Assembly: GCA_964016885.1 (NCBI GenBank)
Contig: OZ024740.1
Coordinates: forward strand, 368,156,001-368,220,000
Reading direction: 5' to 3'
Source: Eledone cirrhosa
Taxonomy: Eukaryota
DNA length: 64,000 bases
Shown here one piece after another: positions 22,401 to 50,580 of the stretch (position 1 is the stretch's first letter; each line of letters begins with the position of its first letter). The translations under genes and the position numbers were made by a program. Under the pieces are notes generated by a model. The model saw only the letters and a list, made by a program, of their open reading frames with translations, was not told the origin of the DNA and ran no database searches.

Positions 22401-22967
22401 GGCTAACCCACTGTGCAGAATCTGTGGAGAGAGAGAGGAGACTGTGGCTCACATTGTATCCGAGTGTAAACACCTAGCCCAGACTCACTATAAGGGCTGG
22501 AGACATGATGTGATGGGCAGGGTGATCCACTGGCACCTATGCAAAGTAAACAATTTACCACATTCTGAGAAGTGGTATGAGCATAAGCCAGAGACGGTGA
22601 TAGAAAACGATCAGGTGAAGGTGCTGTGGGATTTTAGGATACAGACGGACAAGAAACCTGAACACAATAGACCTGACCTGGTGGTTTTAACAAAGAAAAA
22701 AGATCGTGCCTGATTGTGCGCACTAGGGACTATCTCAAAAAGTTTCCAGTTCCAGTCAAAAAGTTTCTAGTTAAAGAAAATTGGCCCCTTCACACTTTTT
22801 GGAACGCTTCAAAAGGCATGCTTGCTGGGGACAGCAAGAACCCTCCGATACGTCATGAATATCTGAGGCTGCAGCTAGTGGCTTGATATTCATTTCAACA
22901 AACATTCCAGTTAACTAACATCAATCACTGGGACTCAAAGAGTAATAACAATAATAATAATAATAAT
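19467..22967 (+). mobile_element. Near full-length, disrupted R4/Dong-clade non-LTR retrotransposon (RT + CCHC + restriction-like endonuclease)
   Basis: Successive ORF pieces with [79 protein letters not shown]. (AAT)n tail. Several stops and frameshifts, and an internal deletion near 22715. 5' boundary approximate. Confidence 0.93.
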
Positions 22968-24315
22968 GTTTTCTTTATTAACCACAAGGGTTTACATAAA
23001 GTAGACATTAAGGACAGTACAGGACAATACAGGACGGTACAAGTGGGCATTTCTGCGTGTAAAAATTATAGAGGATGTACTAAAACAACAAAGAAAAATT
23101 CCCTAATACGGGGGAGACTTCCGAGGGACATTTGTGGAGAAAGCCCATTAAAAGACCACAGTGACCCTGACAACCAGGGCAAGTGCCCTCTCCCAGTTTT
23201 CCACCTTTACTTTACAGACACATATTTAGAGTAGGCCCATTCACTCGGGCTGTACTTGCTTCTCTCACCCATCTTTCAACAAAATGCTGGGAAGAGAGTA
23301 CTTCCCTCTCTACCCTGATTTTCCTTTTCAAATGAAATTTGAAAAAGTTAATCAGGGATTCACCGAAGAGGTAAGTGCTCGTCTTCAGCCCTTTCAAACG
23401 TGTCCAACATACTATCTCTTTCGCCATGGCCACCAGACAGATAAAAACTGCCTGCCCTTCCCGGCTAAAGGAAGAGGGCGGGGTAATCCTCACGATGGAC
23501 TCAGATGATAGCCGGTGTTCGACATAAACAGCAGGTGTTCGACATAAACAGCAGGTGTTCGACATAAACCCACAAGTCAGCAATCCTCGGACACTGGACG
23601 AGTGCGTGCAGGACGGATTCGTCGCCCTGCGCGCATCTCGGACATTCCCGGCTGACGGCACCTCCATGCCTGTAGAGTTTATCCGGAACTGGCAAAGCTC
23701 CCCGGTATCACTGCCAGGCCAGGGATTTCTGGAAGTTGTCCATAGGCCCCGGCCCGAAAGTCCTTCCGAAGATATTGGCTAGGTGATTTTCGTCTACGCC
23801 TAGAGTTTCTCCAAGTACGTCATCGCTCTTCCCCTCCACTAATCCTCTATAGAACGCCAAGGTGGAGTTTCCACCGATCACATTGCCCGATTGGTCGAGG
23901 GCTGTGACCGCCTGAAAACATTCCAGTCTCCAAGCGCTCCCTCTCGGTCTTCGCTTGACCCAGGACTGAAGCTCCGTCAAGGAGACGAGCTGGGGAAAGA
24001 CGTGTCTAGCAAACGGCGACCACACCTGATCACCGTCGAGGAAGAGGTGTAGATGTCGTAGCCTGAGGGCGTGTCTGCGCATCATCAGCCACGGCATGCC
24101 CATCCCTCCACGTAGCGGGTGTTGACAGCAGATGGACCTCCTGACCATCGGAGCGCGTCCCTTCCACAAAAAGCGAAAGAGCAAACGCTCCAGCGCAGTC
24201 AGGCGGGGATTAGGACAAGGTACGAAGGTCAGGCGGTAGTGTAGATGATGGACGCGATGTACGCGTTAACCACCTCCGCTCGACCTTTCAGGGATAGCTT
24301 TCTCTCGGCCCATTT

Positions 24316-25065
24316 CTAGGTGCGAGAAGCCACCCTGCTCGTCACCTCGCCCCAGTTTTTGTCCGTCTGGAGGTCCGGACCGAACCAGACCCCTAGCAAT
24401 TTAACCGGTCCGTCCGTCCAGCGCCCGACGAGGCTATTGGACGGCATGGACCTGCCTCTCCAGGTGCCGAGCTGCAGGCCCACTGATTTTTCCTGGTTGA
24501 TTATTGCTCTTGTCACCGCTTCGTATTCCCTTAGTGTAGTGCCGATCGCCTCGATGCGTTTGGCGTTCGACACCACTACTGTGACATCGTCCGCATATGC
24601 TGACCCGGATCTTCCGCATCCTAGTTCGCGCGGGACCACCCTCAACGTCTCCAGTTTGTGCAGTAATGGCTCGAGAGTCAATCTGTACAAGAGGGACGAG
24701 AGGGGACATCCTTGGCGGACCGAGCGCATGATGTTGAACGGTTCCGAAAGGTGACCGTTCACTCTCACCACAGAGCAGATGTCGCTGTGCATGGCAGCGA
24801 TCCAGTCTCTGAAGACGGGCCCAAAGCCAGCCGCCCTCAGAACTGCCGCTAGATAACGATGGTCGACCCTATCGAAAGCTTTCGACTGATCTAAATTGAT
24901 CAAGGACCCACCCGTGCTAGGTTCCCTAGCTACCCTCTCTACGATGTATCGCATGAGGTGAAGGTTGTCGTGGATGGATCTGTCGGGAATGGCGCATGTC
25001 TGTGCCTCTCCCACCAGACCACCAACGACAAGCGTCAACCTCTTTGCTAGCACCTTGGCCAACAT
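24316..25065 (-). pseudogene. Tx1 ORF2 reverse transcriptase domain
   Basis: 249-aa ORF with AFDRV, QGCPLS, YADD. Confidence 0.9.
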
Positions 25066-25998
25066 CTTGAACTCTGTGTTTATCAGATTTATGGGCCTGA
25101 AATTATCTATGTTATCCCCCTATTTCGGATCCTTTCTCAGCAGCGCCACCGCTCCTCGGCTCAAAGTGCCGGGAATTCTCAGGTTCTGTTGCCAGTTGCA
25201 GTAGACGGCCGCCAAGAGGCCTCCGAACAAGTCTGGCATTTGTACGTAAAGTTCATAGGGCAGACCATACAAACCAGGCGATTTACCCCTTGTGCAGCCA
25301 GTCATTGCCTCCCGGACTTCAGCGGCTGTTATCGGCTTTTCGCAAAACTCCGCCTCAGTGGCTGAGAGCTGCGGCAACCCGTCGAGGTAGACACTAAAGT
25401 ACATCACTCGATCCGGCCCGCCGCTGCCACCGAACAGTTGAGCGAAGTGTCGCTGAAAAGCTTCACACATTTGCCCGGAATCGAGTAGCATGCGCCCGTC
25501 GTGGTCCCCCAAAGACCGGATCGTGGCTTTGTTGCCACGACGCGCCTCCGCCACTCAGGCCCATTGAACGGCTTTCGTCCCTTCGTGTCTGAGAGCACGC
25601 ACCCTAGCTCTGACAATGCAGCCTTCGTGCTTTGCATTGAAGAATTGGTCAAGGGCCAATTTCGCCGCAAGTACGTCGGTCGCGATGCCTTTGCAAACCG
25701 CCTCGTCTAATTTTCTAACTAATTCTCTCTCTGCTCTATTTTTCTCTATTGCTAAAGCCTTACTAAACCTAATGGACTCTATTCTAATTGCTCTTTTCAG
25801 AGCTAACCACCACTTGTTGTTGACGATGTCCCCCGTCAATGCCCGCTCAACTAGTTCGCTAATCCGGTCTCTGTAGGCCTTGCACGCTGGTAAGGACGAG
25901 TTTAGCTTCCAGTAGCCGGGTCCTCGTCTATGAAGCCTATATAAGTTAAGCACACAGATCACAAATTGGTGGTCCGTGTAGCTGAATATCTTGAATTG

Positions 25999-26682
25999 TT
26001 AACAACCTATGCTAGACCTATCTATTTTCCTACAAAATACTCTATCTAGATATGATCTGGATGACCCTATACGATTTGTCCAAGTCCACATTGGTACATT
26101 CGGGAAATTCAATCGGTACCTGTCAGACAGTTCAAAACGCCTGAGCAGGTTGGTGAGACTCTTGCACCCTCCTCCCCTATCCACTAATCCCACACAGTCC
26201 CAGCGTGCATCTAAGATCCCGTTCCAGTCGCCCACTAACACTAAAGAGCGGGACGTTCCAAGAAAGGTCTCCAGACGCCGGAAGAAATCAGGCCGCCCTG
26301 CTCCTGTCGGGGCATAGACGGCCACTAACCTGAAAGCTTGGGCGTCTCCGCTGGTCACGTCCAGCACCACCAACTTACCTTCTGGGTCCAGGAAGATGGC
26401 CCGTATGGCAAGATCCAAACCTCTCCGAAAAAGCACAGCAACTCCACCTCCCGATCCCGGACGGCTGGGAGATGCGTACACATCGTAGCCCTCGAAGATC
26501 GGTGCGAAGGCCCGTGCTTCGGAGATTCTAGTTTCGCTGATGGCCACTACATCTATATTTAATGACCTGAGGTCGTTGAGCAGGTGGCCCTGCTTCCATG
26601 GCGACACCAAGCCACGCGCATTTAAGCTGCCTATCCTGAGGAGGTCATGTTGAAATGGAGTGGAAAAGTTGGGAAAGACCAC
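25999..26682 (-). pseudogene. Tx1 ORF2 apurinic-like endonuclease domain
   Basis: 227-aa ORF with APE motifs, interrupted by a stop before the final SDH-like motif (YTDH). Confidence 0.9.
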
Positions 26683-28843
26683 TTACCTTACTTCTCGTAG
26701 AGGAAGGACGGTTTTTCCATCCTTTTCATTGCTTGTGGCCTCCTCAAGAAGGATGTCCTTATAAATCCTCCTGGAGAGTGCTTGTCGGATGTCTTTGGGG
26801 AATTTTTGTTTTAGTGTCATGTACGTTTTCTGTGTGATGCGAGTGATTTGTATGTGTGGAGGTGGTGTGAATTTTTGGGTTGTTGTGTAGTCTTTTTCTG
26901 TGATGCTGGTGTTGTGTTTGATGTAGTGTAATAATTGCTTGTTGTTCAAATTTAATGCTGTATAGTGTGTATCGTTTTGGTTGTTTTGTTTTGTTCGCGT
27001 TTGTTGTGGGCTTGTTTCTGTTTCGCATTTTGGTGACTTTTGTGGTGTAGGTGATGGTGGTGTTGGGGTTAATGATGGTGATGGTGCTGGTGTTTGGGGT
27101 GATGGGGTTGGTGATGCTGGTGTGGATGGTGGCATATCTGTCCTAACTTTTTTGTTTGTTAATTTATTTGTTTCTTTCTGTATTTTGTTTTTGGAGGGGG
27201 AAGGAAGAGATTTTTTCTTTTTTGGTTTCTTTTTTTCTTTTTTCCTGATACCGTTTCCCACTCCTCGTCGTCACAATCTGTCTCCAGCTGTGATAGGCCG
27301 GGGAGTGGAAAATCCTCCACAGGCGTTAGTTTTGGTTGTGGCGTGGTGGATGGTGGTAGGCGCTGGTGTTAGTTCTGAAGCGTTGGGTGGTGGTGGTGTT
27401 GGTTTTGCTACTGTTGCTGGGGTTGTTGCTGTTATAGTTGCTTCTGTTGTTGCTGCTACAGTTGTTGCTGCCATCTCTGCTACTGGTTGTGTTGATGTTT
27501 GTGTCACTGGGGTGGGTAGGAGAGGTGGCCTCATCCTTTTAGCCTGAGGGCAGAAATACTTTAGGTGTGTTCCTGCACCACAAACGACACACCTAGGCCT
27601 TCTGCCCTCGACAATTCCGGTGAGGTGGCTGCCGTCAGTGAGGTCTATACCTCTGGGATCTCCTCAATGCTTTTTTGGTCGGCTTGGATCAGGAGCTCCA
27701 TCCCAGATCCGGACCAGTTCTCCTGCTTTTCTTTTGCTATTGCTATTATCTTTGTGTTGGCTTCGATGCCGGCGAAGACAGCCGCTATTAGCCAGGGAAT
27801 TTCGATGGCCAGTGGAACGTGGGTCACCCTGATCTTTACGAGTCTCTGGCCACAATAGCTTGGCACGAGTGTGAAGTCGGTACTTCTTAATGGGGCCACG
27901 GAGTGTTCTCTAGCCTCCTCTGGTGTTTCAAAGAACACGTCCACGGTTCCATAATTCTGCCCACGTCTGATGCGGGTTTTTCTTTCCCACACATGTCCGA
28001 AAGCTTTTTGCATTTGGGACTCGGATGCCCGTTCCACTCGGCGCGATTTTACATTAATTGTTCGGTACGACACGGTGCATAGGCGCCGATGCTCCATTTT
28101 ATTAGGTGTGTGTGTGGGGGGGGGGGGGTAAGGCTGACCCTGTACCCATCTTTCTTTACCATTTTGTTGGCATTTTCTAATTCCTCCTGAGTTACCGTAA
28201 ATGCTTCGCACTGTTTTGCTACTCTGGCAAACCTCAGGGTGGTTTTTTTAATGTCATTGTTGCTGTTGTTGTTATCGTTATTTTAGTTATTATTAATTTT
28301 AGTTTCAGTTGTGGTGGTGGTGACGTCAGTGGTGTTGGGTGTTGAAGAGTCCATTTTGGTTGAAAACATTTGGACATCACGAGTTGATTTATTTTTTCCT
28401 TTTGTTTCTGTTGTCGCAGTGGTGGTGGGGGTGGTGGTGGTGGTGGCGGCTTTAACACCTGCAGTCATTGGTAATGGCGGGAAATGAATGTCTACCTGAG
28501 ACAAATTTAAAATATTGCTACTGCTTACATGTTTTGTGTTGGCAAACGTAATAATATTTACAATGGTGGTGTCGGTGTGAGGTGTTAGTTTGTGAGGAAG
28601 GCTATCAGCTGCTTGGTGCATAGGTGAATTAGCCATTTTTTTTCAAAGAAATTTTTGAAATTCATAAAAGTTTAAATTTTGGGCACAAGGCCCCAATCTT
28701 TTTGGGTGTCCTTATCGGAAAACAATGTATGCGCGCTTATAAACAGTTAACAATAAAATTTTCCATAAATGGCAATTTTTAACAAACGAAAACAACAAAC
28801 CTTTGCGGAGCTCACGATGATACGATTTACTACGTAGGTCGCC

Positions 28844-33720: not shown

Positions 33721-33843
33721 CGAATGTGATAATTCTTTACTTGCAATGTGGAAAGGATCCATGCCCCACCACGTACCTAACATTACACCGTCGACAACCA
33801 ATAGAACACCGACGATCAGGAATAATTTATAATCTTTTATAAC
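33721..33843 (-). CDS. GABBR2: GABBR2-like exon (TM4)
   Basis: 123-nt exon, caatag| ... |gtaagt, with a poly-T tract upstream. Encodes VIKDYKLFLIVGVLLVVDGVMLGTWWGMDPFHIASKELSHS. Confidence 0.93.
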
Positions 33844-33938
33844 CTATTGTATGTTAAAAAAAAAAAAAATAGGATAATAATTATTGCATGTATATATGTA
33901 TGTGTATATGTACATATATACAAACACATATATATTTG

Positions 33939-33975
<37 letters not shown>

Positions 33976-34715
33976 AATATATATAGTAGACAGACAGACA
34001 GATATATAGATATATAGATAGATAGATAGATAGTTAAGTAAATCGACAGGCAATTACATAAATAGATCATAATTTAAAGTGTTCAGGAATATATGAGTGT
34101 ATTCATTCAGTTTCATGCGTAGTTTTTGTCAAATTCGCTTGACACATCAGGCACCCAGCGTGAAAGGTACTGTACAACAAACTCGTCGCATTTTAATTTC
34201 TACCAATACGGCTAACATGACGGTTTCACTGGGTCTCGCGAGAATATCATGTGCTATGTGACGGTGGATGAGGACCATTCTGAAGGTAGCATTCAAAACG
34301 TGATTTGATTAGCGACTAAGTGTGTGGAGAAAAAAGGTGTCTAGTTTGCACCAGCCTCCAGTCCGATGCAATGCATGTGTTTGTGTTTGTGTAGGTATGT
34401 ATCTATACAACTGTACACGAGAAGAGATATATACCCCCTCAACAGACTAAACGTATTTTATCTTGGGAAGTAACAATTTCATTTATAGCTTCTAAATAGA
34501 GAAAAGGATTTTACGGATTTGTTTAAAGTACTTCGTAGATATTTTGATTATATTTCTTAAAAGTAATTCCCGATAAATAGAAATTCACTCCATTTTTCAC
34601 CATTTTTCTAATCTGATAAACATGCGAATCTCCAGTGTAACAAGACTCACTAAATAATATTAAACTGCTCTTCGGGATTGAATAGTCTTTTCTCGCAGCC
34701 GTCCCCCATTTACGG

Positions 34716-34783
<68 letters not shown>

Positions 34784-34784
<1 letters not shown>

Positions 34785-37250
34785 TATCACAGAAACGAGC
34801 AAGGATTTGCTGCCAGATTAATTATCTTAAACACTGTCTGAAGAACGATTTAATCCCCAACATCATCAGAAATATCCGGCTCCGCCGAGCCCTCAGTTCA
34901 TCGGGATTCATTAAACGTGTGCATCACACCTGCTTAAAAAATTCACACGTAATTTATACCACCAGCTCCACCTACACACACAACCAATTTCACAACAGAT
35001 GATTTTACTAAGAATAACACTCGATAGTCTGCTCTATACTACTACAGCGCTATCGACCAGTGCTACCATGCCCGGGTCCATTTTGAGAAAGAACGTCTCA
35101 AACATAAATTCGACTGGACCCTTAAAGAACAGACTAAAGCCAATAATAGCGTTACACGTGATAACAGCACTCCTCTCTAGCAGACAACCTCTAACACTAT
35201 TGGAGTCGGGCTTCAACATGTTCAACGCCAGAAACACGACAACAGCAACCCCACCGACTCTATGAACAGCTCCACTCTTGACCCGCAGAATGATGACAAC
35301 CTAAAACTCGTCACAGATCTAACTGGGTCTCTTTCCAACGATGAAATGCAATTCTTCCGTCGGGAACCCAAGTTTATCTTGACGTAGTAACTCGATGACA
35401 GACTCAAATTCGCCATCGAGGACAATTTCTACAGAGCCGCCTACAAGCTAAAGTGGCTGCCTTTCACTGAGACTACCACAATGAACTCAAGATTCCCCAC
35501 TTTCAATCGCGACAACTTACTACACCCTCCATCCGCCAACCGTGATCTAGAGACTAAACTCTAACGGTTAAAACTTACCATTACTAACATCATACAAAAC
35601 ACACACATACTCACCACAAACTCTCCAGATCACAACTCGCTACCCTAAGCAGCCTTAGAACAAAGAAACTTGTATACCTCCCGTCGGACAAGGGAGAAGA
35701 GATTTATGTTATTACCAGAGAAGCCTACAACAGACTAGCCTTCCAGCATCTGAAGGACGACAATATCTAATTGGAAATCACTAGCATTACACCCACTCTG
35801 ATATAGAACTGGATCGACACTGCCTGGACAAAATTCTGCGACCGACGAAGGCTCCCTAACTGATTCCGGTACCATTACATAACGAGGAACAGTAGGCTGC
35901 GCAACTTATACCACTTGATCAAAACCCACAAAGAAGGACCTGACCTGGAAGATGGACCCATTGTCCCCAGTGTTGAAGGACCATCTTATAAAATCTCTTG
36001 GCTACCGACCAGTTCGCATGATGTCATCCATCGACTCAACCAACTTGAAATTGACACTCTCAAATCCAACAGATACGCCTAGATCTAGTATTCGCTACAC
36101 ATCGGCAACAGCACTTTCGGCAGTGGACATACTCACTGAATGTGGAGGTTTCAGCGAGCTGGATTATTTTGGGCTCACCACCATCGACATCCAACAGCTC
36201 CTATCCATCATTGTAAACAACTCATTTTCCAACTTCCTTGGACAAACATGGATTACCCATGGGATCCAGCCACTCGGGTTTACTGGCCATTACGTATGAG
36301 AAGAGATGTGAATGCCGAGATCTTTCTGCACTAGATATGTGGATAATATACTCACCCTCACACCCACCAAGGAGAATGCCACAAGATTTTCGAATATTTC
36401 AACATGCTGAATATAACATGAAGTTCAACATCTAACATCCCACCGACTCCCGGTCCCACACTGTACTTGATTTCAGACTGAACATCTCTGATAGTGGTGA
36501 CATCTACACCGGTTTCTACTGCAAAGCAGCCAGCAAGGACCTGTTTGTGCATTAGAAAACTGCCCTCCCCAACAGATCTAAAAGACGGTACATTTTCAAC
36601 GAAATGGCTCGCATACGCAACCGATGCAGCAACGCTGCTAATGGAGCCACCCATATCAGACGATTCCACAAGGTAGTAGAGATTAACGGCTACCTAACTT
36701 CCTTCACCACCCCACGATAAACCCAGACCCAGCGACCGGACCAACACAAACAACAGTTGCTTCTTCAAGATCTCACATCACAGTGAGGTAACCATCAACG
36801 CCATACGCAAAGCCATCAGGAGAGGGCCTCAATATCCAACTAGCTCACTCTGGACCTTCCCTGCGAAGATGCCTCTCCACAAGGCACCCCCCCTCCAACG
36901 AGGATAACGGATACACCCTAGGCAATTGCCATATCTGCAACACTAATAGTTGCCTATGTACCTACGTAGTATACAGGATAGCATGTAACAAATGTTATCT
37001 ACTTTACATAGGCAGCACTATTCGACTGTTACATCTCCGTATTAAAGAGCATGTTAACACCAACTTCTCTTACTTCCGCAAACACACCATCAAATGCAGA
37101 AACCTGGAAAACATTACCACCACAATGTTAACTACTATAGGCACGCTGAGAGTTAAGGAAGCCCTCTTAATCAAGCAATTAAAACCTAGGATCAAATATC
37201 GAATGGAAAGAAGTGTACCAGAATGGCTGTATTCTAACATCCCAGTGGTC
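34784..37250 (+). mobile_element. Decayed Penelope-like retroelement (RT + GIY-YIG)
   Basis: Fragments in shifting frames: INYLKHCLKNDLIP, YLPSDKG, LYHLIKTHK, HGLPMGS, RYVD, then CHICNTNSC and VVYRIACNKC..YIGSTIRLLHLRIKEH. Begins right after (TA)n(GA)n. Confidence 0.85.
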
Positions 37251-37784
37251 AGTTTCATTCTTTCTGTCAAATTAAATCTATGTCCTCACTCGACAAACAC
37301 ACTTAGACTCACACAAACACACACACACATATCACACATTTTTTCCCTTTTTATTATATACATATTCGCACACTCCCTTCACTAGATAAATGTATATTCA
37401 TGCACACACATACAAACATCCCACTAAGCACACTTACATTCATGCACACACATTCATATATCAGAAACTTTTCCACAAACATTTCACAACGCTCACGTTC
37501 GAAATTATAACGTCTTTTCATTTCATTTAACTTGAGTATGTTTTCCAAACAAGTCATTACCGATCGATCTTTTAAGTCTATCCAAGAGATACTCCTTTGA
37601 TAATTGGTATTTAAATCCGAAAATATTTGGTATTATTAAATTTGTTAATGTGAGATTATTTTGTTGTTTTAGCAATTTAATTTTCTTTCTAGTGCATTGT
37701 ATGGTTTCCAAACTATTAACATTTGCGTTTACGGTTCAAAAATGCTTCAAGCAAATTACAGCACTCTGATACACACATACATAT

Positions 37785-37816
<32 letters not shown>

Positions 37817-37967
37817 ACACACATACACACATATATATATATATTTATATTTATATATATATAAACAATGTGTTGATTATCATTCAACAAAGTTAATTTT
37901 ATAACAGATTTGAAGCACTCTACATAATTTATCTGAAGTATTATTAATATTAACAAGTTTAATAAAT

Positions 37968-38207
37968 GTAAAATATATATACCATATTTATTATATTATA
38001 CGTATTTCATGGACACACAGTTTTAGTATTCTTTCATCAGTTAGCGACCTTATACTATTAAGTCTACGCTAAGGTATGTCTATATCTTAACGCCAAATAT
38101 TATGTTTTATCTGATGAAAGCACACTAAAATGTTGTGTCCTTGAAATACGTATAATAAAATAAATATGGTATTATAAAGATATTTTCCATTTATTTATAT
38201 TATTAAT

Positions 38208-38208
<1 letters not shown>
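37968..38208. mobile_element. Fold-back element (arms ~37968-38040 and 38111-38188) ending in (TA)n
   Basis: Diverged inverted repeat; both arms contain CTGATGA...GAAATACGTAT. Confidence 0.7.
38105..38160 (+). ncRNA. Minimal type I hammerhead motif
   Basis: ttttat-CTGATGA-aag..ctt-GAA-atacgtat-A-ataaaa: 6-bp stem I, palindromic stem III, AUA triplet. Confidence 0.7.
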
Positions 38209-38294
<86 letters not shown>

Positions 38295-38320
38295 ACTCAC
38301 ACACACATATATATATATAT

Positions 38321-38791
38321 ATTAGAATTGGTGCTCTGTAATAGCGATGTATATATATGGATGTATATATATAGTGTATTTGGTAATACACTGTATTCTT
38401 AATTAAGGCATTTTGAAGACCTTGCGCTATTGTTTTAAAATAGAGACTATGTCACTTAATTATTTTTTCAACAAACAAAGGGAGATAAGCTGACATATCT
38501 CTGTTTCATACTGTTGGTATTCCTCAGAGCTTAGCACACCCTTTGTTTGTTGAAAATTATGAATGTTGGATTCTTATAGAATTCCAGTAATACTCAGGAA
38601 CTGATTATACAGAGCGGTTGCCGGTCCAGCAAAGATTGAAAATTAGAATTGGTGCTCTGAAATAGCGATGTATATATGGATGTATATATAGTGTATTTGG
38701 TAATACATTGTATGCTCAATTAAAAGCATGTTGAAGACCTTACGCTATAGTTATAAAGTAGTGACTTTGTCACTTAATTCTTTTTTCAACA
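38321..38791. mobile_element. Family B, two tandem partial copies
   Basis: attagaattggtgctctg... at 38321 and 38642, homologous to 15901. Confidence 0.8.
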
Positions 38792-39730
38792 AATATGTAA
38801 GTAAACGGTAAACAGAAATATCAACACAATCGGTACAGTATATGTAAGGTATATATTAGGTTAACGCTTGATATAGCAGGAAGAGGGTCTTAATTTTTTC
38901 GGACGTTAGTCCTTCATAAGAAGAAATAATGAGAAATAAAATAGATTAAGGGGACGGGCGGGATGGAATTGGAAAAAATGTATTTAGATAAAAATAATAG
39001 GTCCATTCATGTTAATCATGGGGCAATTAGCTTGAAAGGCAATATGTTTTTCGTGAGTCTTTATTGTATCCATGATGTTTCACATAAAACCATTCAATAA
39101 AATATTCAAATATCTAAAGCTCCACTTTGCATTATATGTATGTGTTTGTTTAAGATACATATTTTCGAAAATCACCACAAATTAACCTTTAGTTTGTCGT
39201 CTCATTTTTTCATTCATTTTCTTCCCACTTTCAAGAGTTTATGCATTAAACGAATTATAACTGCAATCCCAATCTTAGCCACTTAAGACATTCATCAGGA
39301 CATAATTAAATGTAAAAGTTTCACCCGTGGAATTTTCTCATCAAATAATCATCGGTAATAGCGACATTAAATTACATATTACTTAGCTTATATAAACATG
39401 TGTACAGGATTGAATTTATTAGAATTCGTTTTTCCATAAAATTCCGCATACACTCGAATCTCAAAAGTTTCAAAACTACGTATGCACAACTGCCAATATT
39501 ATTGGATATTATGTTCTTAAATGATATTCAACCTCGATTTGTTATATGTGGGTGTTGGAAGGAGAGTTGGTGAGTATTTCTGTATTATTCACAATAAATG
39601 TTTCATTTGAGCGAGGCAAATAAGCGTTAATGACAAAATTTTCGAAAGTTCGTTAATATAATAAAAGGTATTAAACCTCTTATTGCATACTTTCCTGTCA
39701 TTTTCTCAATGTTACATATATATATATATA

Positions 39731-41031
39731 TAGGAACAAGTATGACCCCGACGGCAGAGCTCAAGCCGTTTCGACGGCTATTTCTGGACTAAATAAGAAT
39801 TTTTAGCCAGGTAAATAAATAGCCGAACTTCTCAGGGGTATTTCATTATATGGGAAGATATAATTGTCAAGAGGATTGGTCAAAAATGTGTTGTAAAGAC
39901 AGATAAATCTATCATGACATTTGGTGGGAGGTAGGGGTGGCTGAACTTGTCAGTAGAACAAAGAGGGAGTGGAGGAAACCCAGTCAAGCGTTGAAAGTGA
40001 AATCTATACAGCAGATTCTAAGGATTATTTAATAGGTCTAAAAAAGTGTACTGGCGAAAAAAGGCGAGGGGGAGTTGAAAGAATAGGTAAATCAGTACCC
40101 CCCCCCCCTAATTTTAAGATAGAATTGGCCGATTACGCTTTTTATAGCAGATTTGTTAGACCCCAGTAATTTTTTTTCTTTCTGGTTGCTGCTCCATTTC
40201 TATGGTTTCTAAATTTCTTAGTGGTATTTTTGAATTAATATTTTTGTATTAGTATTTTTGTATTAATATTTTGTTTTAGTATTTTTGTAGTAGTATTTTA
40301 GTATTTTCGTTTTCAACTTATTAACCTGTCATTGTAAGATAGAATTGGCCTATTACTAACTATCTATAGCAGCGGTGTTAGACCCCCTGTAAAGCCGGCT
40401 TTATAAATTTCTTTCACTACGATCTCGTATTTAGTATTTTTCCCATTCTCCACCTATTAAACTTTTCTATAGCTTAGCAATACCAATGAGAAATTTGGTG
40501 ATTGTAGAAATGGAGTAGTAACCAGAAATTGTTATTATATATTTATTTCCTTATTTTTATGTTTTTTTTTTGTTTTCTACTCCCTATCGATTTACCTATT
40601 CTTTCAACTCCCCCTCCCCCTCCTCTTTTCCAGTACACTTTTTCCTTTTATACACTATCCTTAGAATCTGCTGTATAGATTTCACTTTCACCGCTTCACT
40701 GGGTTTCCCCGACTCCCTCTTTGTTCTACCGGCAAGTACAGTCACCCCTACCTCCCACCAAATGCCTTGATAGATTTATCTGTTTTTACAACACATCTTT
40801 GACCATTCCTCTTGACAATTACTATCTTCCCATATAAGGAAATACCGCCTGAGAAGTTCGGCTACGTATTTACAAGGCTAAAAATTATTATTTAGTCCTG
40901 AAATAGCCGTCGAAACGGCTTGAGCTCTGCCGTCGCAGTTATACTTGTTCCTATTACCCACTCAACTACTCTAAGTATTGAGTACTTTGGTGCGTTATGG
41001 TCCATCTGGTTCCTTACCACAACTCCTTCGC
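39731..41031. mobile_element. Fold-back element family A, longest copy
   Basis: Diverged arms ~39731-40097 and ~40580-40953, tail 40954-41031, (TA)n on both sides. Confidence 0.85.
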
Positions 41032-41037
41032 TATATG

Positions 41038-41097
<60 letters not shown>

Positions 41098-41109
41098 TAT
41101 ATATATGTA

Positions 41110-41187
<78 letters not shown>

Positions 41188-41227
41188 TGTGTGTCTATGT
41201 GTGTGTGTGTATATATATATATATAAA

Positions 41228-41342
41228 GGCGTTTGGCTGAGTGGTTAGAGAATTGGATTCGTAATCGTGAGGTTGTGAGTTCGATTCCTGGACCGGGCAA
41301 TGAGGTATGTCCTTGAGCAAGAGACTTTATTTCACGTTGCTT
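41228..41342 (+). mobile_element. tRNA-headed SINE (second family), truncated
   Basis: tggctgagtggtt A box and gagttcgattcc B box, followed by a tgtccttgagcaagagactttatttcac core. Confidence 0.75.
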
Positions 41343-41440
41343 CTTCTACCTGGAGTTGCGACCGATAGTTAGTATTAGCAATTGGAAAGACCAATGGAAA
41401 TATTGTTTGCTCGGTCCGATTTAACGAAAGTTGATCGTTC

Positions 41441-41479
<39 letters not shown>

Positions 41480-41487
<8 letters not shown>

Positions 41488-42251
41488 ATATTTGGGGAGG
41501 GTCATATTTGCGTAATATTGCCAGAATTAATAACAGAACACACTCACTGTTTGGTTGGTTTTCGCTTCTCGCTGTCTTTTATATATATATATCTGCGATC
41601 TAACTTACTCGGTCCTCAATGTTGCCATTGACTGACCGGCGGTCAAAAATAATACAGATACAATATAGACACAAACACATATATATAGTTTACATAATTT
41701 ACATAAATCTTTCGTTGCACATCTGCAACATCGTCAGTGGTGTTATATTCATTGTCACGACACTATACACACTAGTCACACATCACACTATACACACACG
41801 CAAACGCATGCGCAAAGAAGACAAAATAAAATAAGATAAACAAACAAGCAAATAAATAAATAAATATATAGACAGACTGAACAAAAAAAAAATGGCGTAG
41901 ACATACAACACAACAGGAGGAACAATGAATATAACACCACTGACGATGTTGCAGATGTGCAACGAAAGATTTATGTAAATTATGTAAACTATATATATGT
42001 GTTTGTGTCTATATTGTATCTGTATTATTTTTGACCGCCGGTCAGTCAATGGCAACATTGAGGACCGAGTAAGTTAGATCGCAGATATATATATATAAAA
42101 GACAGCGAGAAGCGAAAGCCAACCAAACAGTGAGTGTGTTCTGTTATTAATTCTGGCAATATTACGCAAATATGACCCTCCCCAAATATAACAATATCTG
42201 TTTCGACACACGATTTCATATAAAAAACCTCGCAAAACTAATTCATCGCCG

Positions 42252-42252
<1 letters not shown>
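41480..42252. mobile_element. Fold-back element (arms ~41480-41755 and 41922-42197, tail to 42252)
   Basis: ~275-nt nearly identical inverted arms (mirrored ORFs 41619-41834 and 41783-42058), bounded by (TA)n. Confidence 0.88.
41935..41978 (+). ncRNA. Hammerhead motif (mirror on minus strand ~41700-41742)
   Basis: CTGACGA-t-gttgca-gatg-tgcaac-GAAAGATTTA. Perfect 6-bp stem II; stem I weak. Confidence 0.55.
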
Positions 42253-42290
<38 letters not shown>

Positions 42291-42504
42291 TTTTCCCGGA
42301 CTGACCACTGTAGACTTTCGTGGCGTCATTTCCAATACACGTATATTTACTTGCTAATATCATACAAATACTTCAGTTGGTCACCGAGTGGACGAAACTT
42401 AAATTAATAGAATATAGTGAAGAAAGCCGCCACAGTGCACTATCACATCCAGATAATTATTAAGAGAAGCACACATAAGCGTATATCTTTATATACATAC
42501 AAAG

Positions 42505-42549
<45 letters not shown>

Positions 42550-42553
42550 CGTG

Positions 42554-42584
<31 letters not shown>

Positions 42585-42592
42585 GTGTGTAT

Positions 42593-42877
42593 CTTGAAAC
42601 TAGTACAGCGTTCCTTTGTCAGTTTTGAACAAACGAGCAACGATGGTTGCTAGACACTACGGCTTAATACGGGTTGTTTGTTTACAAACAAACCAAAGCA
42701 TTATAATAAATGTTTGGTGAATCCATACGTACATATATATATGTGTGCATGTATATATATATATATACATACATACTACTGTACGTCTGTATACATATAT
42801 GTATGTACGTGTACATACTTATATTTAAGTAACAGCCGTACTAAGAGTGGGAAATGAAATTTCGTTTCATTATTTCC

Positions 42878-42880
<3 letters not shown>
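42593..42880 (+). mobile_element. Family C partial copy
   Basis: Starts cttgaaactagtaca; homologous to 44650-44960. Confidence 0.8.
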
Positions 42881-42930
<50 letters not shown>

Positions 42931-42934
<4 letters not shown>

Positions 42935-43058
42935 CGTTTCGTTTCGCTTTTTCTACCCGCCGAAATGCGATTCTTGCTGAATTTATATATATATATATAT
43001 ATATAAATTCAGCAAGAATCGCATTTCGGCGGGTAGAAAAAGCGAAACGAAACGTAAA
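42931..43058. repeat. 128-nt near-perfect palindrome centred on (AT)10
   Basis: 54-nt arms 42931-42984 and 43005-43058 with one mismatch. Confidence 0.92.
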
Positions 43059-43275
43059 TCAGAGTTATGCTGGCAAGCGCTCAATAGTTAAAAAACCAGA
43101 GCTAAGCAATAAGTCAAAACGCCATACAAACTGAAAAAGTGGTCAAGAAGGCATTAACCACCTAATAAACAAATCAATCTAAACAGGTCAAACAAAATAA
43201 ATGATAAAAACAGACCTGGACCCATTTAAATTGATGGTAAAATCCAAATGTAGGGTCTATGACACCTAATTCAAT

Positions 43276-43460
43276 AATTGTTTCTACTTTAGGCACAAGG
43301 CCAGCAATTACCAAGTGCTTTACTGGTACTTTATTTTATCGACCCCGTAAGGATGAAAGGCAAAGTTTACCTAGGCGGGATTTGAACACAGAATGGAAAG
43401 GGCCATAATTCTATGCGACAAAGCATGGCGTCCGACCCTCTACCGATACTGCGAATCCTG
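43276..43460 (-). mobile_element. SINE S1
   Basis: Full S1 body. Confidence 0.85.
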
Positions 43461-43500
43461 CCTGCTTAAAACTATAAGCTTTTGATATAATGATCGAACA

Positions 43501-44351
<851 letters not shown>

Positions 44352-44626
44352 TATATATATATATATATATAAACGGACAAAATGAAACGAAATTTCATTT
44401 CCCACTCTTAGTACGGCTGTTACTTAAATATAAGTATGTATACGTACATACATTTATGTATACAGACGTACAGTAGTATGTATATATATATACATACATG
44501 CACACATATATATATGTACGTATGGATTCACCAAACATTTATTATAATGCTCGGTGTGATTGTAAACAAACATCCCGTATGGAAAGTATATACTTTCGGA
44601 CATTCAACTATCTGGCAGGAAGGTAT

Positions 44627-44669
44627 ACGTTGCTGACGATAGCTAACAAGCTTGAAACTAGTACAACGT
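44627..44669 (+). ncRNA. Minimal type I hammerhead ribozyme motif, tandem copy 1
   Basis: acgttg-CTGACGA-t-agct-aaca-agct-t-GAA-actagt-A-caacgt: 6-bp stem I extendable by aagg/cctt, palindromic stem III, GUA triplet. Confidence 0.8.
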
Positions 44670-44810
44670 TCCTTTGTAAGTGTTGAACAAACGAGCAACG
44701 GTGGTTGCTAGACACTACGGCTTAATACGGGATATTTCTTTACAAACACACCGAGCATTATAATAAATGTTTGGTGAATCCATACGTACATATATATATA
44801 TGTGTACATC

Positions 44811-44851
<41 letters not shown>

Positions 44852-45085
44852 TACTGTACGTCTGTATACATATATGTATGTACGTATACATACTTATATT
44901 TAAGTAACAGCCGTACTAAGAGTGGGAAATTAAATTTCGTTTCATTTTTTCACTTTTTCCGTTTACCGTTTTCAGTAGCACCCAGCCGATTAACCCACTC
45001 GATATGCACATTGGGCTACTCAGCTGTTAATATGCATAAGAAAAGTATATACTTTCGGACGTTCAACTATCTGGCAGGAAGGTAT

Positions 45086-45128
45086 ACGTTGCTGACGATA
45101 GCTAACAAGCTTGAAACTAGTACAACGT
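45086..45128 (+). ncRNA. Minimal type I hammerhead ribozyme motif, tandem copy 2
   Basis: Identical to 44627-44669, 459 nt downstream. Confidence 0.8.
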
Positions 45129-45340
45129 TCCTTTGTAAGTGTTGAACAAACGACTAACGGTGGTTGCTACACACTACGGCTTAATACGGAATGTTTGTTT
45201 ACAAACAAACCAAAGCATTATAATAAATGTTTGGTGAATCCATACGTACATATATATATGTGTGGCTGTATGTATACATATATATATATACACATACTAC
45301 GGTTCGTCTGTATACATATATGTATGTACGTATACATACT

Positions 45341-45374
<34 letters not shown>

Positions 45375-45377
45375 AAT

Positions 45378-45465
<88 letters not shown>

Positions 45466-45612
45466 ATAATAATAAATTTGAAGACTAAAATGCAAAGAGG
45501 GCTCGATAAGGATAAATATATATCAAATATATAGGAACCGTAGAGGAAATATTTATTATATATACATACTAAGGTTCGTCTGTATACATATATGTATGTA
45601 CGTATACATACT

Positions 45613-45688
<76 letters not shown>

Positions 45689-45699
45689 TACACACACAT

Positions 45700-45748
<49 letters not shown>

Positions 45749-45851
45749 GTATATATATATATACATATATATTTGTGTGTGTGTGTATAAATGTGTGCGT
45801 GTGTGTATGAATGTATATAAATATATACGTTTATGTGTGCTTCTATTAATA

Positions 45852-45885
45852 ACTAGCATTAAAGCCCGGCGTTGCTCGGGGTCAG
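45852..45885 (+). mobile_element. Helitron/Helentron-like terminus
   Basis: ACTAGCattaaagcccggcgttgctcggg, same pattern as 797 and 1697. Extent of the element not determined. Confidence 0.45.
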
Positions 45886-47510
45886 TAAGTTACCAAAGTT
45901 AGGTTGCACCACCCATTTTATGGCAGCACTTTTTTGTTTGCCAGGCACTGGGTGAATGAATTGAAGACCTGGACTGCCGAAGCAGGAGCTGTGCCAGCAT
46001 TGACAATTGTAGTTTCGCCTATGGATATTATCTCTGTGCAAAGAAGTGTTGAAATTTATTGTTTCACAGTACTTGTGCAACACGCGCGTAGACGATGCCA
46101 GCCGAACAACAGAGCTGCGATGGAGTTGTTCTGCATGGTTGTCTAATGTGTGTTTTCTAAATTAAAGATAGTAGGGAGGGCTGTGATATGGGGGAGAGTT
46201 AGCTGCTCTTTCTAGCATGTTTAGTGACCTCATAGAGGACATTATTGTGTTAGTAAATGAACTGACACTTCTTTCTTCCACGTTCGTTGATAGATGTTTT
46301 AAAACAGATTTATCCCGATTTTTTTTGTTGTTGAATACATTTTTTGTTGCTTTTGAATAATTGTTGTTTCGTATGAAATGTAATAAGTTCTCTTTGTCAT
46401 TGAAGTAAATAAATATTTGACCGTTCCACACTCAAAAACAAACGTTCGTTCTCTCTCCCTCTCCCTCTTAAAGTTTAAGTGGAGTAGAGAGAGGTAATCA
46501 GATGCTATTAGAGGGGTAAGGCATCATGTATTTATTTTTTATCCATTATTTCCGTAATTGTGGGTGACTGTGCATGAAATAAATAGTCGTTTACCTAAGT
46601 TAGACATTTACAACTTTGCTATAGACGTTGAGTCGAATCGGTTTGAAATTGTGCAAATGTATAAACATGGAACATGCACACACACACACACAACAACAAT
46701 AATCTGCCTCTTATAGATAATGATTATCCGATGTGATAGTGCACCGTGCCGGCTTTCTTCGAGACAATCTAATAATTCAGGACATTCTAATAATTTAAGT
46801 TTCGTCCACTCTGTGACCAACAGAAGTATTTGAATGATATTAGCAAGTAAATCTCTGTGAAAGGGAAATTTGGATATCGATAGAAATGGCTCCACGAAAG
46901 TCTAAGTGGTCAGTCCGAGGGAAAGTGAGTGAACCTGCTGAAAGGTGGAGTAAATATTTCTAGTCTGATGGTCTTCAATTATGATATTATTTAGCCCGTT
47001 AATTCATAAATAGTAGAAGATTATATGATTTACATATATGAGAAACATAGGAGAGAATATGCAAAATAAAATGTTTCTGTGTCTAGTAGCGTTTTAAACA
47101 CAGGAGCATTACTCGGAAATTTATGATTAATTACGTACAATATCCATTAAAGACTTCAATATATATGTATGAGGAAAAGTCTATTAACCGTAAGTTGAAC
47201 CTTGAATATAACTGAAATCTCTCCTTTCTGAAATATATATTCGCCTCCACTATAGACATTTAGAGCTTCTCTAATCAAAATATGTGTATATATGTATGTA
47301 TATATATATTTAGCGCCGCTAAACTGATACGTGCATATATGTATGTGTACCTGTATGCATATGTATGTATATATGTGTATATATATATATATATGTGCAT
47401 GCTACTGTACGTCTGTATACATATATGTATGTACGTATACATGCATACTTACATTTAAGTAAGTGCCATACTAAGAGTGAGAAATGAAATTTCGTTTTCA
47501 TTTTGTTTCA

Positions 47511-47605
<95 letters not shown>

Positions 47606-48681
47606 AATCACTTCGAATTTTGTTCGATAAAACACTCTAATAATGAAAAAAATCAGAAATGTTCACCAAAAGTTTGCACGATATCAAAAGTATACCTATG
47701 CCTCATTCTAACACACGGTACTGAAGGCCAATATCCCATACATACCAAGTGACGAAATCCCGAACTATCCGGCATTTAAGCTCGTGCACTGACTTGTACC
47801 TAGGGTAAACTCCAGACTACACACCTGTGCCAACAGTTACGATTCCACCAGAAGCCAAACTGTGGACAATTGTTTCAATATCGATCAGCTCAATCTATAA
47901 TCTCAATGATACGGTTCGACTTTTCTTCTAGATCTCCACAGATATGCGAGTTGATGTGTGCAAGTACACAGCTACACTGTTGACAGAGGTCCCGGAATGA
48001 TTTAACCACTCATATATCCTCGTACTCCTTTATTTAATCTCTCTAAATTATTTTTTATTTTACTTTACCCCAATCCTTTCATGAAATTATTACTTGATAT
48101 TTTTATTCATGCATTTCTACATAAAACCTTTTAAAACTGATACGCGAGTGTGCATGCAGTATACATACATAAAATACAGACACTTTACCACAAAGTACCA
48201 TCCCATATTATTCACTTAACTATTTATTTTTAAACCCTTTAAATTTTACTTTATTTTATTTTATATCTTCTTATTCACCCAGTTACTTATACATTTAATT
48301 ATTTACTCATTTACTTCTATATAACCTTTTGATGAAATAATCCTTTACATTCTAAGTCCAATCTGTACATAGTCTTAACTAACCCTTTCTCCATTCTCTA
48401 TTCGTATGACTATTATACCCCTTCTCCTCCTATTACTCTCCTACCCACTAACTAACATACCCCACACACATTATTTCCATCCCCTGCCCCATAGCTTGTT
48501 TAGATACACTTACCATTCTCTGCCCTCCTCCCTTATACCATCTTTTTCTCTCAGCTTACTATGAACATTTTGATCGCAGCACTAAAAACGTCTAGTGCTG
48601 TGATCAAAATATTCACACATTTTGCAAACGTTCCTAAACCATTGAAAAACTCACTGTACACAAAAGCTGAAAACACTTTAA

Positions 48682-49072
48682 AGTTCTAAGAGACGGCGGG
48701 GCTGGTTCTTTCCAATGGATGTTTGAAGCAGGCTTATTCCTGCATAGTTTCACTACAATATGCTTAGCTCTAGCAATAAGAATGAAGGAGAGAAAGTCAT
48801 CTGCACACAGGTTAAGGGAAGAAGCTGAAATAGCATCTGGGAGTATAGCAGCTTATATCTAGGAGGCGGGGATTAGACCGTCATCCCTGGCAGGCTAATT
48901 AGAGGTTGTGGTAGAATATTCAGAGTGTATAAAAGTATACCAGATCAGTTGCCCTGACACAAAAGACACATGCAGTTAAGGATGTGTTTTATCTTCTGTA
49001 GTTGGTGAATTTTAGAATAAAGATTAATGTAATATTTTCATTTCTTTAATATCAAATACTCCATTAGGAACA
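48682..49072 (+). mobile_element. Possible solo LTR
   Basis: ~390-nt island richer in GC, with tataaaa (48928), aataaa (49017), an end ...ggaaCA and an imperfect inverted start agttctaa. No TSD seen. Confidence 0.3.
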
Positions 49073-50472
49073 ATCCACTATCTGTTTAATCGTGGTGATT
49101 GATGCCATACCTACTTGTAACCATATACGAACAGAAATCGATGTGATCTTCTGGCATGGATTTAATGATATAAACTCTGACATAGATATTCATAGGCAGA
49201 ACCGCACTAATAAATACATGATACTGTCGTATACATATGCACGCCCATTCACTTATATGCAAGAAAAATAAAACATAAGTTAAAGCATATGTGTAATTTC
49301 ATAATTTCATCTTGTTATTAACACATCATCATATATTTTCTTCACCCAATTTGTTAGTATATATACGAAACATATTTCATTAAATTGAAATTTATGTGCA
49401 AAATCGTTATTGTTGATATTAATCAAAGTGTTTACAAAGCAAATATTTTCAGGGTTTAGATAAATATTCTATGATGCTTAATCTCAATTAAATTCAATTC
49501 ACCCCCATTCTCCCTCCGCACCGATATGAGAACCATATGTCAACCATCCATAAATATCCATTTACTGTATCCATTTCATTGACTTTTCACACCATTTAGT
49601 AAACTGCAAACACACGCTTACACTGACACATGCATATGTATATACATATATATACACGAAGGAACACTCACATATAGCACAAATGAAGAAAGATAAGCAT
49701 GTGTATATCATCAGGGGATTTATATGCTTCACCAATATTTAATAAAGTTGTAGTATCATTTCATTAATGATTGTCAACTATTCCTATCACATTGCAAATA
49801 ATATTGAAGTATTCTCCTAAAAGCGCAAATATGTATGACTTTATCACATACTCACATGCACACACTCAACATATTTGTAAGTATATATATGTGTGTGTGT
49901 GTGTGTGTGTATGTGTGTGTATGTGCCTGTGTGTGGTGTGTGCGTGTGTGTGTCTGCGTGTGTGTGTAAACTTCTGTAGGGGCATGCATGTATAGTTGTG
50001 TGCGTAACTGTAATATATAATCATAAATTGCTTGATGCACTCCATTTAATACTGATATCATCGTTTATTTCCCATATGATTCTATTTATTTATACCTAGA
50101 TAAATAGAACTAATTTCCTTTGCAATTTACATAATAGATACAATGATTTGACCTCGTATTCGGTCACGAATCTCATGTTTGTGTGTAGACATTTTATATT
50201 AATCATGTTTTGCTTTTCATATATTACGCCTTCGACCTGTTATATTAGTATATGGAATTAATACCTGATCCATTATCAATATATAATATATGCAGTAAAA
50301 AGCATAGTAATAAATGTCGGTAATTTGGATGTTTCGAAAACTGAATGACGTTACACAGGAGAATTGTCTATGAAGTGATGAAACATGAATTAAGAACACT
50401 TAAATACGTGTGAACAATTTTAAACTGGAGTTAATGTAGGGTGTTATAATGAGAGCATAAAATAGAGATTAC

Positions 50473-50580
50473 CTTTTTATTTAACTTAATATTGGTGAAT
50501 ATAGCGTGAACCCGCCATGTTTTGCTAAACATCGCTCCAAAGGCTAATGTAAATCCAATGCTTAATACCCACGCTCGAGC
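50473..50580 (-). CDS. GABBR2: GABBR2-like exon (TM3-ICL2)
   Basis: 108-nt exon, tttcag| ... |gtaatc. Encodes [36 protein letters not shown] (FGAMFxKTWRVH signature). Not in the ORF track. Confidence 0.95.

Follow-up and report, generated by a model that had tools for sequence, protein, structure and literature searches.

Non-LTR retrozymes of metazoans have units of 220-245 nt in coral, 350-390 nt in mussel and 330/350 nt in axolotl, and for these families hammerhead cleavage and RNA circles have been reported (PMC7229834), whereas the family described here is known from sequence alone. According to the same source, axolotl dimers cleave well; one of nine Xenopus dimers was reported to cleave in vitro (10.64898/2026.07.22.740005). 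The hammerhead of the anole Penelope element is described as requiring protein and as being dispensable for insertion (PMC11167929). Insertions of Penelope-like elements (PLEs) follow a recognisable pattern: copies are partly tandem, a truncated copy is inverted, only one of the ends has the tail, and (TA)n is preferred as a target (Craig et al. 2021, PMC8557442). In vitro, the tail corresponds to the stretch between two internal reverse-transcription starts, and cutting and extension take place on both strands of the target (Frangieh et al. 2024, PMC11167929). Mobilisation of retrozymes by Penelope elements has already been proposed (PMC7229834; PMC7761336; 10.64898/2026.07.22.740005), and these three sources treat the enzyme that moves animal retrozymes, as well as circles as its template, as open questions. 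The sample described by Li, Clavereau and Pollet (2026) comprises 31 vertebrates, three insects and one coral, without a mollusc (10.64898/2026.07.22.740005). Our literature search found no report of a cephalopod retrozyme, although the supplements of PMC7229834, PMC4209133 and 10.64898/2026.07.22.740005 may list one; for the giant squid genome, 235 Rfam hammerhead matches are on record (PMC6962438).

Here, we describe a tandem hammerhead repeat in a 64-kb stretch of Eledone cirrhosa DNA, analysed as a whole and referred to as the window. Throughout this genome, the repeat unit recurs at high copy number, in tandem and inverted layout, with two fixed 3' ends, at TA targets and without a linked ORF. 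We conclude, with a probability of about 0.8, that the locus is an aged copy of a non-coding hammerhead family with tens of thousands of copies, likely moved by the reverse transcriptase (RT) and endonuclease of a Penelope-like element that is probably of the Neptune/Nematis type.

Two identical hammerhead motifs in direct repeat

The window contains two type I hammerhead motifs on the forward strand, at positions 44627-44669 and 45086-45128. Both read ACGTTG-CTGACGA-T-AGCT-AACA-AGCT-T-GAA-ACTAGT-A-CAACGT, with a 6-bp helix I (ACGTTG/CAACGT), the core CUGACGA, a U.U pair followed by a 4-bp helix II and its AACA loop, then GAA, a palindromic ACUAGU helix III and the cut-site A. This confirms what an earlier sequence-only reading had reported, namely two identical hammerheads in direct repeat with cuts predicted after 44663 and 45122, 459 nt apart. 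A type I descriptor matched four times in the window, at these two motifs and at two belonging to other families, and in none of 30 shuffles. When the motif was folded alone, a folding signal was absent (z -0.59). A search of the window with Rfam returned no match at the gathering score; up to an E value of 10 there were 102 matches, none of them to a hammerhead family and most of them microsatellite hairpins matching miRNA models.

The predicted cut-to-cut monomer (44664-45122, plus strand) is 459 nt long, has 34% GC and holds no credible ORF. As previously claimed, it appears non-coding: the frames over the element are of low complexity only, and Pfam gave no match. ORFs over the element, including 44726-45145, were rejected as coding and represent microsatellite read-through. 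The two units had also been said to differ downstream of their identical motifs, and 15 of 287 compared sites do (~5%, microsatellite columns included). Two rare changes are common to both units, and both motifs carry a rare U-A replacing U.G in helix I, which was found in 3 of 100 dispersed copies.

From left to right, the insertion consists of a (TA)n target microsatellite (44351-44371), an inverted arm, a full unit, a partial unit and (TA)n again, here as a (TA)n/(CA)n microsatellite (45342-45460). The inverted arm (44372-44580, minus strand) is 209 nt long and 5'-truncated, covering unit positions ~144-352; it lacks the hammerhead and ends, tail included, at B, the distal one of two 3' ends used throughout the family. 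Unit 1 (44582-45040, plus strand) is a full, permuted 459-nt copy. Unit 2 (45041-45341, plus strand) is partial and stops at the proximal 3' end A, without the tail. This tail, the stretch between ends A and B, lies at 44896-44963 on the plus strand and is longer here than the 59 nt of typical copies. The insertion hence has end B at its left, with 0.5 unit and the tail, and end A at its right, with 1.7 units and no tail. The extent given in the sequence-only reading, 44582-45345, does contain the two units, of which the second is incomplete and stops at ~45341. That reading overlooked both the inverted arm and the fixed ends, the features most informative on the mechanism. Similarly, the spacing of 459 nt was correct but reflects an aged, microsatellite-lengthened variant of a ~430-nt unit. 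Among 14 dispersed monomers measured (420-459 nt, median 430) it is the longest, because of a longer TA tract and a small insertion.

Two further fragments of the family lie within 3 kb of this copy. One is a separate 5'-truncated copy (42593-42882, plus strand) that starts inside the hammerhead and ends at B into (TA)n; the other is a 3' fragment of a sister subfamily with a ~480-nt unit (47327-47512, plus strand), likewise ending at B into (TA)n. Directly left of the element, and separated from it by the left (TA)n tract, is an inverted pair of truncated pLTR ends from a Neptune/Nematis-type Penelope family (43968-44355; 89-91% to the pLTR in locus L064), both hammerheads of which have core changes and look dead. 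A near-perfect inverted pair at 42931-43060, made of an unrelated ~55-nt end facing (TA)n, probably represents the ends of another repeat family.

A large genome-wide family of non-coding units

Searching the genome with the intact-core motif as an exact pattern gave 28,745 matches (reversed control, 0), a density of ~10 per Mb, and 3,236 adjacent motif pairs 413-443 nt apart. A DNA search of the same genome (3.0 Gb) returned 1,910 candidates, and the 40 that were scored were 96-100% identical. The family occurs as dispersed insertions and as long tandem arrays of a non-coding unit of ~420-500 nt with a GC content of 0.34-0.38; cut-to-cut monomers in arrays measure 412-427 nt (80 cases), and a sister subfamily has units of 466-502 nt. 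The family loci sampled were the best BLAST matches to the window copy, and nine overlapping loci were dropped before cores, alleles, ends and monomers were counted. The core was intact in 82 of 100 dispersed copies, compared with 20 of 48 and 30 of 41 motifs in two large arrays.

Helix pairing was assessed in 21 aligned motifs (19 distinct), the core columns of which are fixed by the search pattern. In total, 94% of the helix cells were paired, compared to 32-47% in the slid controls. Among the 19 distinct rows, a single pair of helix I occurs as G.U, U.G, A-U, C-G or U-A, with helix II and the core fixed. For covariation the result was negative, as only two pairs change on both sides and 289 of 500 shuffles reach that count.

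The region upstream of any unit is either more unit or a truncation, the unit being permuted. No ORF was found joined to it, including at the 9 of 97 family loci that were hit by four Penelope proteins in tblastn and for which the coordinates were read. Given that more unit or a truncation always lies upstream and that a joined ORF is absent, the element is considered non-coding and non-autonomous. With ~29,000 intact-core motifs, the sequence-level features of this large family fit those of a non-LTR retrozyme. The class proposed from the window, a retrozyme-like unit antisense to a GABBR2 intron, is thus supported and has gained strength from the genome-wide family, while the sequence-only interpretation as a whole is partly supported.

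Paired 3' ends at TA targets

Copies of the family stop at two fixed 3' ends ~59 nt apart, either A (after ...ACATACTT) or B (after ...TTCCGTT), and inside the unit the trinucleotide TAT is found directly 3' of both sites. Out of 54 non-overlapping loci, 27 hold one-armed copies, which end at A (15), at B (10) or elsewhere (2), with 5' ends scattered over unit positions 1-377. The other 27 hold two-armed, divergent copies: 19 combine A with B, one has A twice, one has B twice and six are unclassified. The pairing of A with B in 19 of the 21 classifiable two-armed copies differs from the expectation for independent ends (p 1.1e-4). Both ends could also be called in 6 of 19 insertions from a position-ordered sample, and all six were A+B. 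The ends mostly run into (TA)n at the loci examined, a raw tendency with no background rate attached, and since they abut (TA)n, target-site duplications, which in retrozymes exceed 4 bp when present, are unreadable there.

The family thus shows tandem and inverted insertion with 5' truncation and a one-sided tail, together with a bias for microsatellite targets, and lacks an RT plus GIY-YIG ORF between pLTRs. Taken together, TA targets, variable 5' truncation, inverted arms and paired 3' ends make the insertions look Penelope-made, as far as sequence features suggest. The window locus itself is an ordinary copy of a known kind of element; it is the end pairing at the level of the family that provides useful mechanistic evidence.

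Proposed mechanism and template

We propose that source copies of two or more units would be transcribed and that neighbouring hammerheads would pair through their palindromic helix III, cut, and free monomers of ~430 nt, sometimes dimers. A host ligase would circularise these RNAs. At a (TA)n tract nicked by a Penelope protein, this protein would begin reverse transcription within the RNA, using two fixed positions 59 nt from each other, one per cut strand; both positions adjoin a short UAU that matches the target. Synthesis would proceed over a variable length, either around the circle or on a multimer left uncut, and the resulting two cDNAs would be joined head to head.

Cleavage of unit dimers is plausible only by analogy. 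The active fold of the monomer is predicted to be weak (-1.8 vs. -13.5 kcal/mol), and the double-hammerhead fold reaches -20.4 kcal/mol vs. a co-fold minimum of -32.1. The predicted circle of the window monomer has -125.6 kcal/mol (z -6.4), with a TA-rich hairpin accounting for a large part, and predicted circles of four monomers range from z -6.2 to -8.2, again partly through a TA-rich hairpin. A run search with the unit listed 24 runs: 20 had a share of 0.05, probably from microsatellite words, and the 4 others are real holders, seen as contigs only and of unknown run type. Two runs are annotated as RNA, both at 0.05, and a meaningful share of the unit was found in no RNA run.

The template was addressed by comparing units within and between insertions. 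Subfamily alleles agree within an insertion in 86% of comparisons (tandem, 168 of 196; inverted, 142 of 166), compared to 15,976 of 31,752 (50%) between insertions. Of the rare alleles, 11-14% are shared by units within an insertion and 2% by units of different insertions (divergence figures include microsatellite columns). Multi-unit insertions such as L148, L149, L150 and L152 came from 12 regions picked for having several neighbouring motifs. The young insertion L150 comprises seven monomers on two arms, six of which are letter-identical, and lies 3-5 substitutions from the nearest other insertions examined; L152 resembles this pattern. Two unit types alternate strictly in L148, L149 and L019, and L148 has inner units that are more alike and edge units that are more diverged. 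L115 mixes subfamilies.

These patterns may be footprints of rolling-circle target-primed reverse transcription, a reading to which we give somewhat less than even odds. A Neptune-type Penelope protein would copy circular retrozyme RNA from two fixed starts, one per nicked strand; monomer circles would give rise to identical units on both arms and dimer circles to ABAB arrays. Rolling-circle copying predicts the pattern seen in the sequence of L150. The L150 and L148 patterns would also be explained by uncut multimers from homogeneous arrays or by later unequal crossover. A rolling circle of a single monomer as the sole route was rejected, because the 14% allele discordance and the mixed insertion L115 indicate that a single circle is not the only template.

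Alternatively, the template could be an uncut linear multimer: a hammerhead inherited from a pLTR would rarely cut or would need protein, circles would not be involved, and tandem units would stem from tandem sources. We regard this as unlikely, yet deserving serious weight, as in the anole system RNA that has not been processed supports internal initiation, and insertion persists when the hammerhead is mutated (PMC11167929). It would also agree with the weak predicted active folds, while allele discordance and mixed-subfamily insertions fit heterogeneous templates and the homogeneous arrays that exist could supply identical units. Less easily reconciled with an idle ribozyme is that subfamilies with clear divergence in the rest of the unit have retained the core and the pairing of the helices, and that coral, mussel and axolotl repeats of the same design are reported to give circles (PMC7229834). 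Moreover, the identical units on both arms of L150 and the alternation in L148, L149 and L019 would be expected from monomer and dimer circles. If rolling-circle copying by a Penelope protein holds true, the machinery that mobilises animal retrozymes would be identified, and the inverted arm and the one-sided tail of Penelope insertions would be explained in a 430-nt system, in a recently active family.

Penelope-like elements in the genome

The genome contains 10,597 GIY-YIG candidates; 50 loci were examined out of 150 listed. Several families among these 50 encode RT, GIY-YIG and a CX4CxxC linker of the Neptune/Nematis type, this linker being the sole basis of the label. Three such families have pLTR hammerheads with a 3-4-bp helix II and a 6-nt palindromic helix III, and in two of them the U.U base is the same as in the unit. 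Several Penelope families among loci L032-L079 (e.g., L078:5643, L061) carry hammerheads with a U3-A8 core variant (UUGAUAA, UUGAAAA) and the palindrome ACCGGU, a combination that many of their copies preserve.

No pLTR homologous to the unit was found at the 50 GIY-YIG loci; L055, L071, L072 and L076 hold separate inserted copies of it. Comparison of the unit with seven Penelope 3' regions revealed no convincing similarity, the best match being 15 nt beside a microsatellite (z 3.1). The likeness of the tail to two Penelope 3' ends (TTTCG..TCAT..TTTT) was not above shuffles (z 1.3 and -0.3) and is a lead only.

The units might then be truncated pseudo-LTRs of an autonomous Penelope element, the full-length copies of which would have escaped sampling. 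The insertion hallmarks all match autonomous Penelope elements, most Penelope copies are 5'-truncated, and 50 of the 150 listed places, from 10,597 candidates, were sampled. However, copies with more sequence upstream continue into another ~430-nt unit, in some cases for tens of units, and never into an ORF, and not one of the 50 sampled loci carries the unit as its pLTR, which makes this origin improbable.

Long arrays

Two arrays contain at least 48 and at least 41 motifs and fill most of the 20 kb taken for each. Satellite-size arrays with many decayed cores were noted at L111-L114 (G000:C28:36.06 Mb, C21:33.96 Mb) and at G000:C1:51.77 and 53.36 Mb; the C21 array starts at end B. Arrays of more than 20 kb with decayed cores, along with L148, where inner units resemble each other more than edge units do, as in concerted evolution, could point to a satellite DNA amplified at the DNA level by unequal crossover or extrachromosomal DNA circles, with a fossil ribozyme and no RNA step. 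As an account of the whole family this is very unlikely, since it does not predict that dispersed copies should have 3' ends at fixed sites, 5' ends that scatter, inverted arms and TA targets. DNA-level amplification probably explains the later growth of long arrays.

Host gene and neighbouring repeats

The exons on the minus strand of the window encode a class C GPCR, two consecutive transmembrane (TM) exons matching PF00003. The best solved-structure match of one 40-aa exon was GABA-B receptor subunit 2 (E 1.2e-14; subunit 1, E 1.6e-11), so the host gene is probably GABA-B R2-like, judging from this similarity. The element lies in a 16.6-kb intron (33844-50472, minus strand) between the consecutive TM-domain exons 50473-50580 and 33721-33843. 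As the host exons are on the minus strand, the plus-strand hammerheads are antisense to the gene, and the host pre-mRNA contains only the antisense of the motifs of this copy. This one intron holds three copies of the ~430-nt unit's family and three other hammerhead families. With a family of tens of thousands of copies, the position within an intron seems incidental, and the window copy is most likely a passenger. Selection for a regulatory role at this locus, with an antisense ribozyme or a circular RNA controlling the GABA-B receptor gene, is hardly credible despite the intron of a neural receptor gene and two intact motifs that both carry the rare helix I change, given ~10 intact motifs per Mb genome-wide, the other family copies and hammerhead families in the same intron, window units that have drifted 5% apart, and a ribozyme strand that is not the pre-mRNA strand.

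The inverted arm 44372-44580 together with 44725-44951 and 45184-45341 would give a fold-back of ~200 bp in the host pre-mRNA, which is a possible A-to-I editing substrate. A different hammerhead repeat at ~38330-38750 (minus strand, core 38527), with a 3-bp helix III, is on the sense strand of the GABA-B R2-like pre-mRNA. It has 1,946 candidates in the genome (top 40 at 94-96%), and its ~310-nt periodicity and its end at TA point to a second retrozyme family. Were it active, it could cleave the pre-mRNA; the fold predicted as the minimum is not the active one. Next to it, 37960-38200 holds an inverted pair of a further hammerhead-like motif (core 38111, plus strand), a related motif of which is found in L066 and L073, and 34680-37400 holds a degraded Penelope-like element, in which a GIY-YIG frame spans 36792-37385 (PF01541, E 6.7e-6). 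Elsewhere in the window, there are two long broken non-LTR retrotransposon copies with RT-like frames identified by eye (19860-22700, plus strand; 23700-28250, minus strand), and a long inverted repeat pair ~2.5 kb apart (2330-2780 and 5070-5520) with the same 99-aa frame on opposite strands.

Comparison with known systems

The hammerheads had been labelled minimal, and minimal PLE hammerheads are indeed like the window motif in being expected to need dimerisation and in the palindromic positions 15.2-16.2 and loop 3 (Cervera and de la Pena 2014, PMC4209133). The label nevertheless does not strictly apply, as the motif has a 6-bp helix I, a 4-bp helix II and a palindromic helix III, and does not have G10.1-C11.1; a helix-III-less PLE hammerhead, which would have a long helix II, was accordingly rejected as the class of the motif. 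In its sequence, the motif follows the canonical type I design of metazoans, in which helix III is palindromic and weak, as set against the minimal type of PMC4209133.

The family resembles the metazoan non-LTR retrozymes described in PMC7229834 in its non-coding tandem unit of a few hundred bases with GC <50% and one type I hammerhead per unit, in its short palindromic helix III, thousands of copies ranging from dimers to arrays, and a highly paired predicted circle. With its U.U pair below helix II, the motif is reminiscent of HHR_Amex2 of axolotl (PMC7229834). At 412-502 nt, the unit lies at or beyond the upper limit of the retrozyme range of 150-450 bp published there, and its ends show Penelope-type inverted arms, a one-sided tail and TA targets, where PMC7229834 mentions target-site duplications. 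Like the Xenopus retrozymes reported in 10.64898/2026.07.22.740005, the family has a proposed origin from, and dependence on, Penelope elements, monomers, dimers and multimers coexist, and many copies are intronic in that system as the window copy is here. The Xenopus evidence given in that source is co-occurrence and pLTR homology (24 of 57 families), whereas here it is insertion structure, with no pLTR homology found.

Regarding PLEs, the family matches the endonuclease-positive (EN+) pattern of Neptune, Nematis and Naiad in its insertion signature and in two internal starts downstream of the hammerhead, as described in PMC8557442 and PMC11167929. While EN+ Penelope elements measure 3-4 kb and have a tail of 30-40 nt, this family has no ORF, a unit of 430 nt and a tail of ~59 nt. 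The anole element is reported to start at non-homologous sites (PMC11167929), whereas here 3-5 nt that match the TA target adjoin both ends. Thanks to the paired ends at fixed sites and to young insertions of several near-identical units, the question of the mobilising enzyme and its template becomes testable in one genome, with a short RNA and intact Penelope ORFs. Altogether, the element fits the sequence-level features of non-LTR retrozymes, fails those of an autonomous Penelope and behaves like a Penelope passenger.
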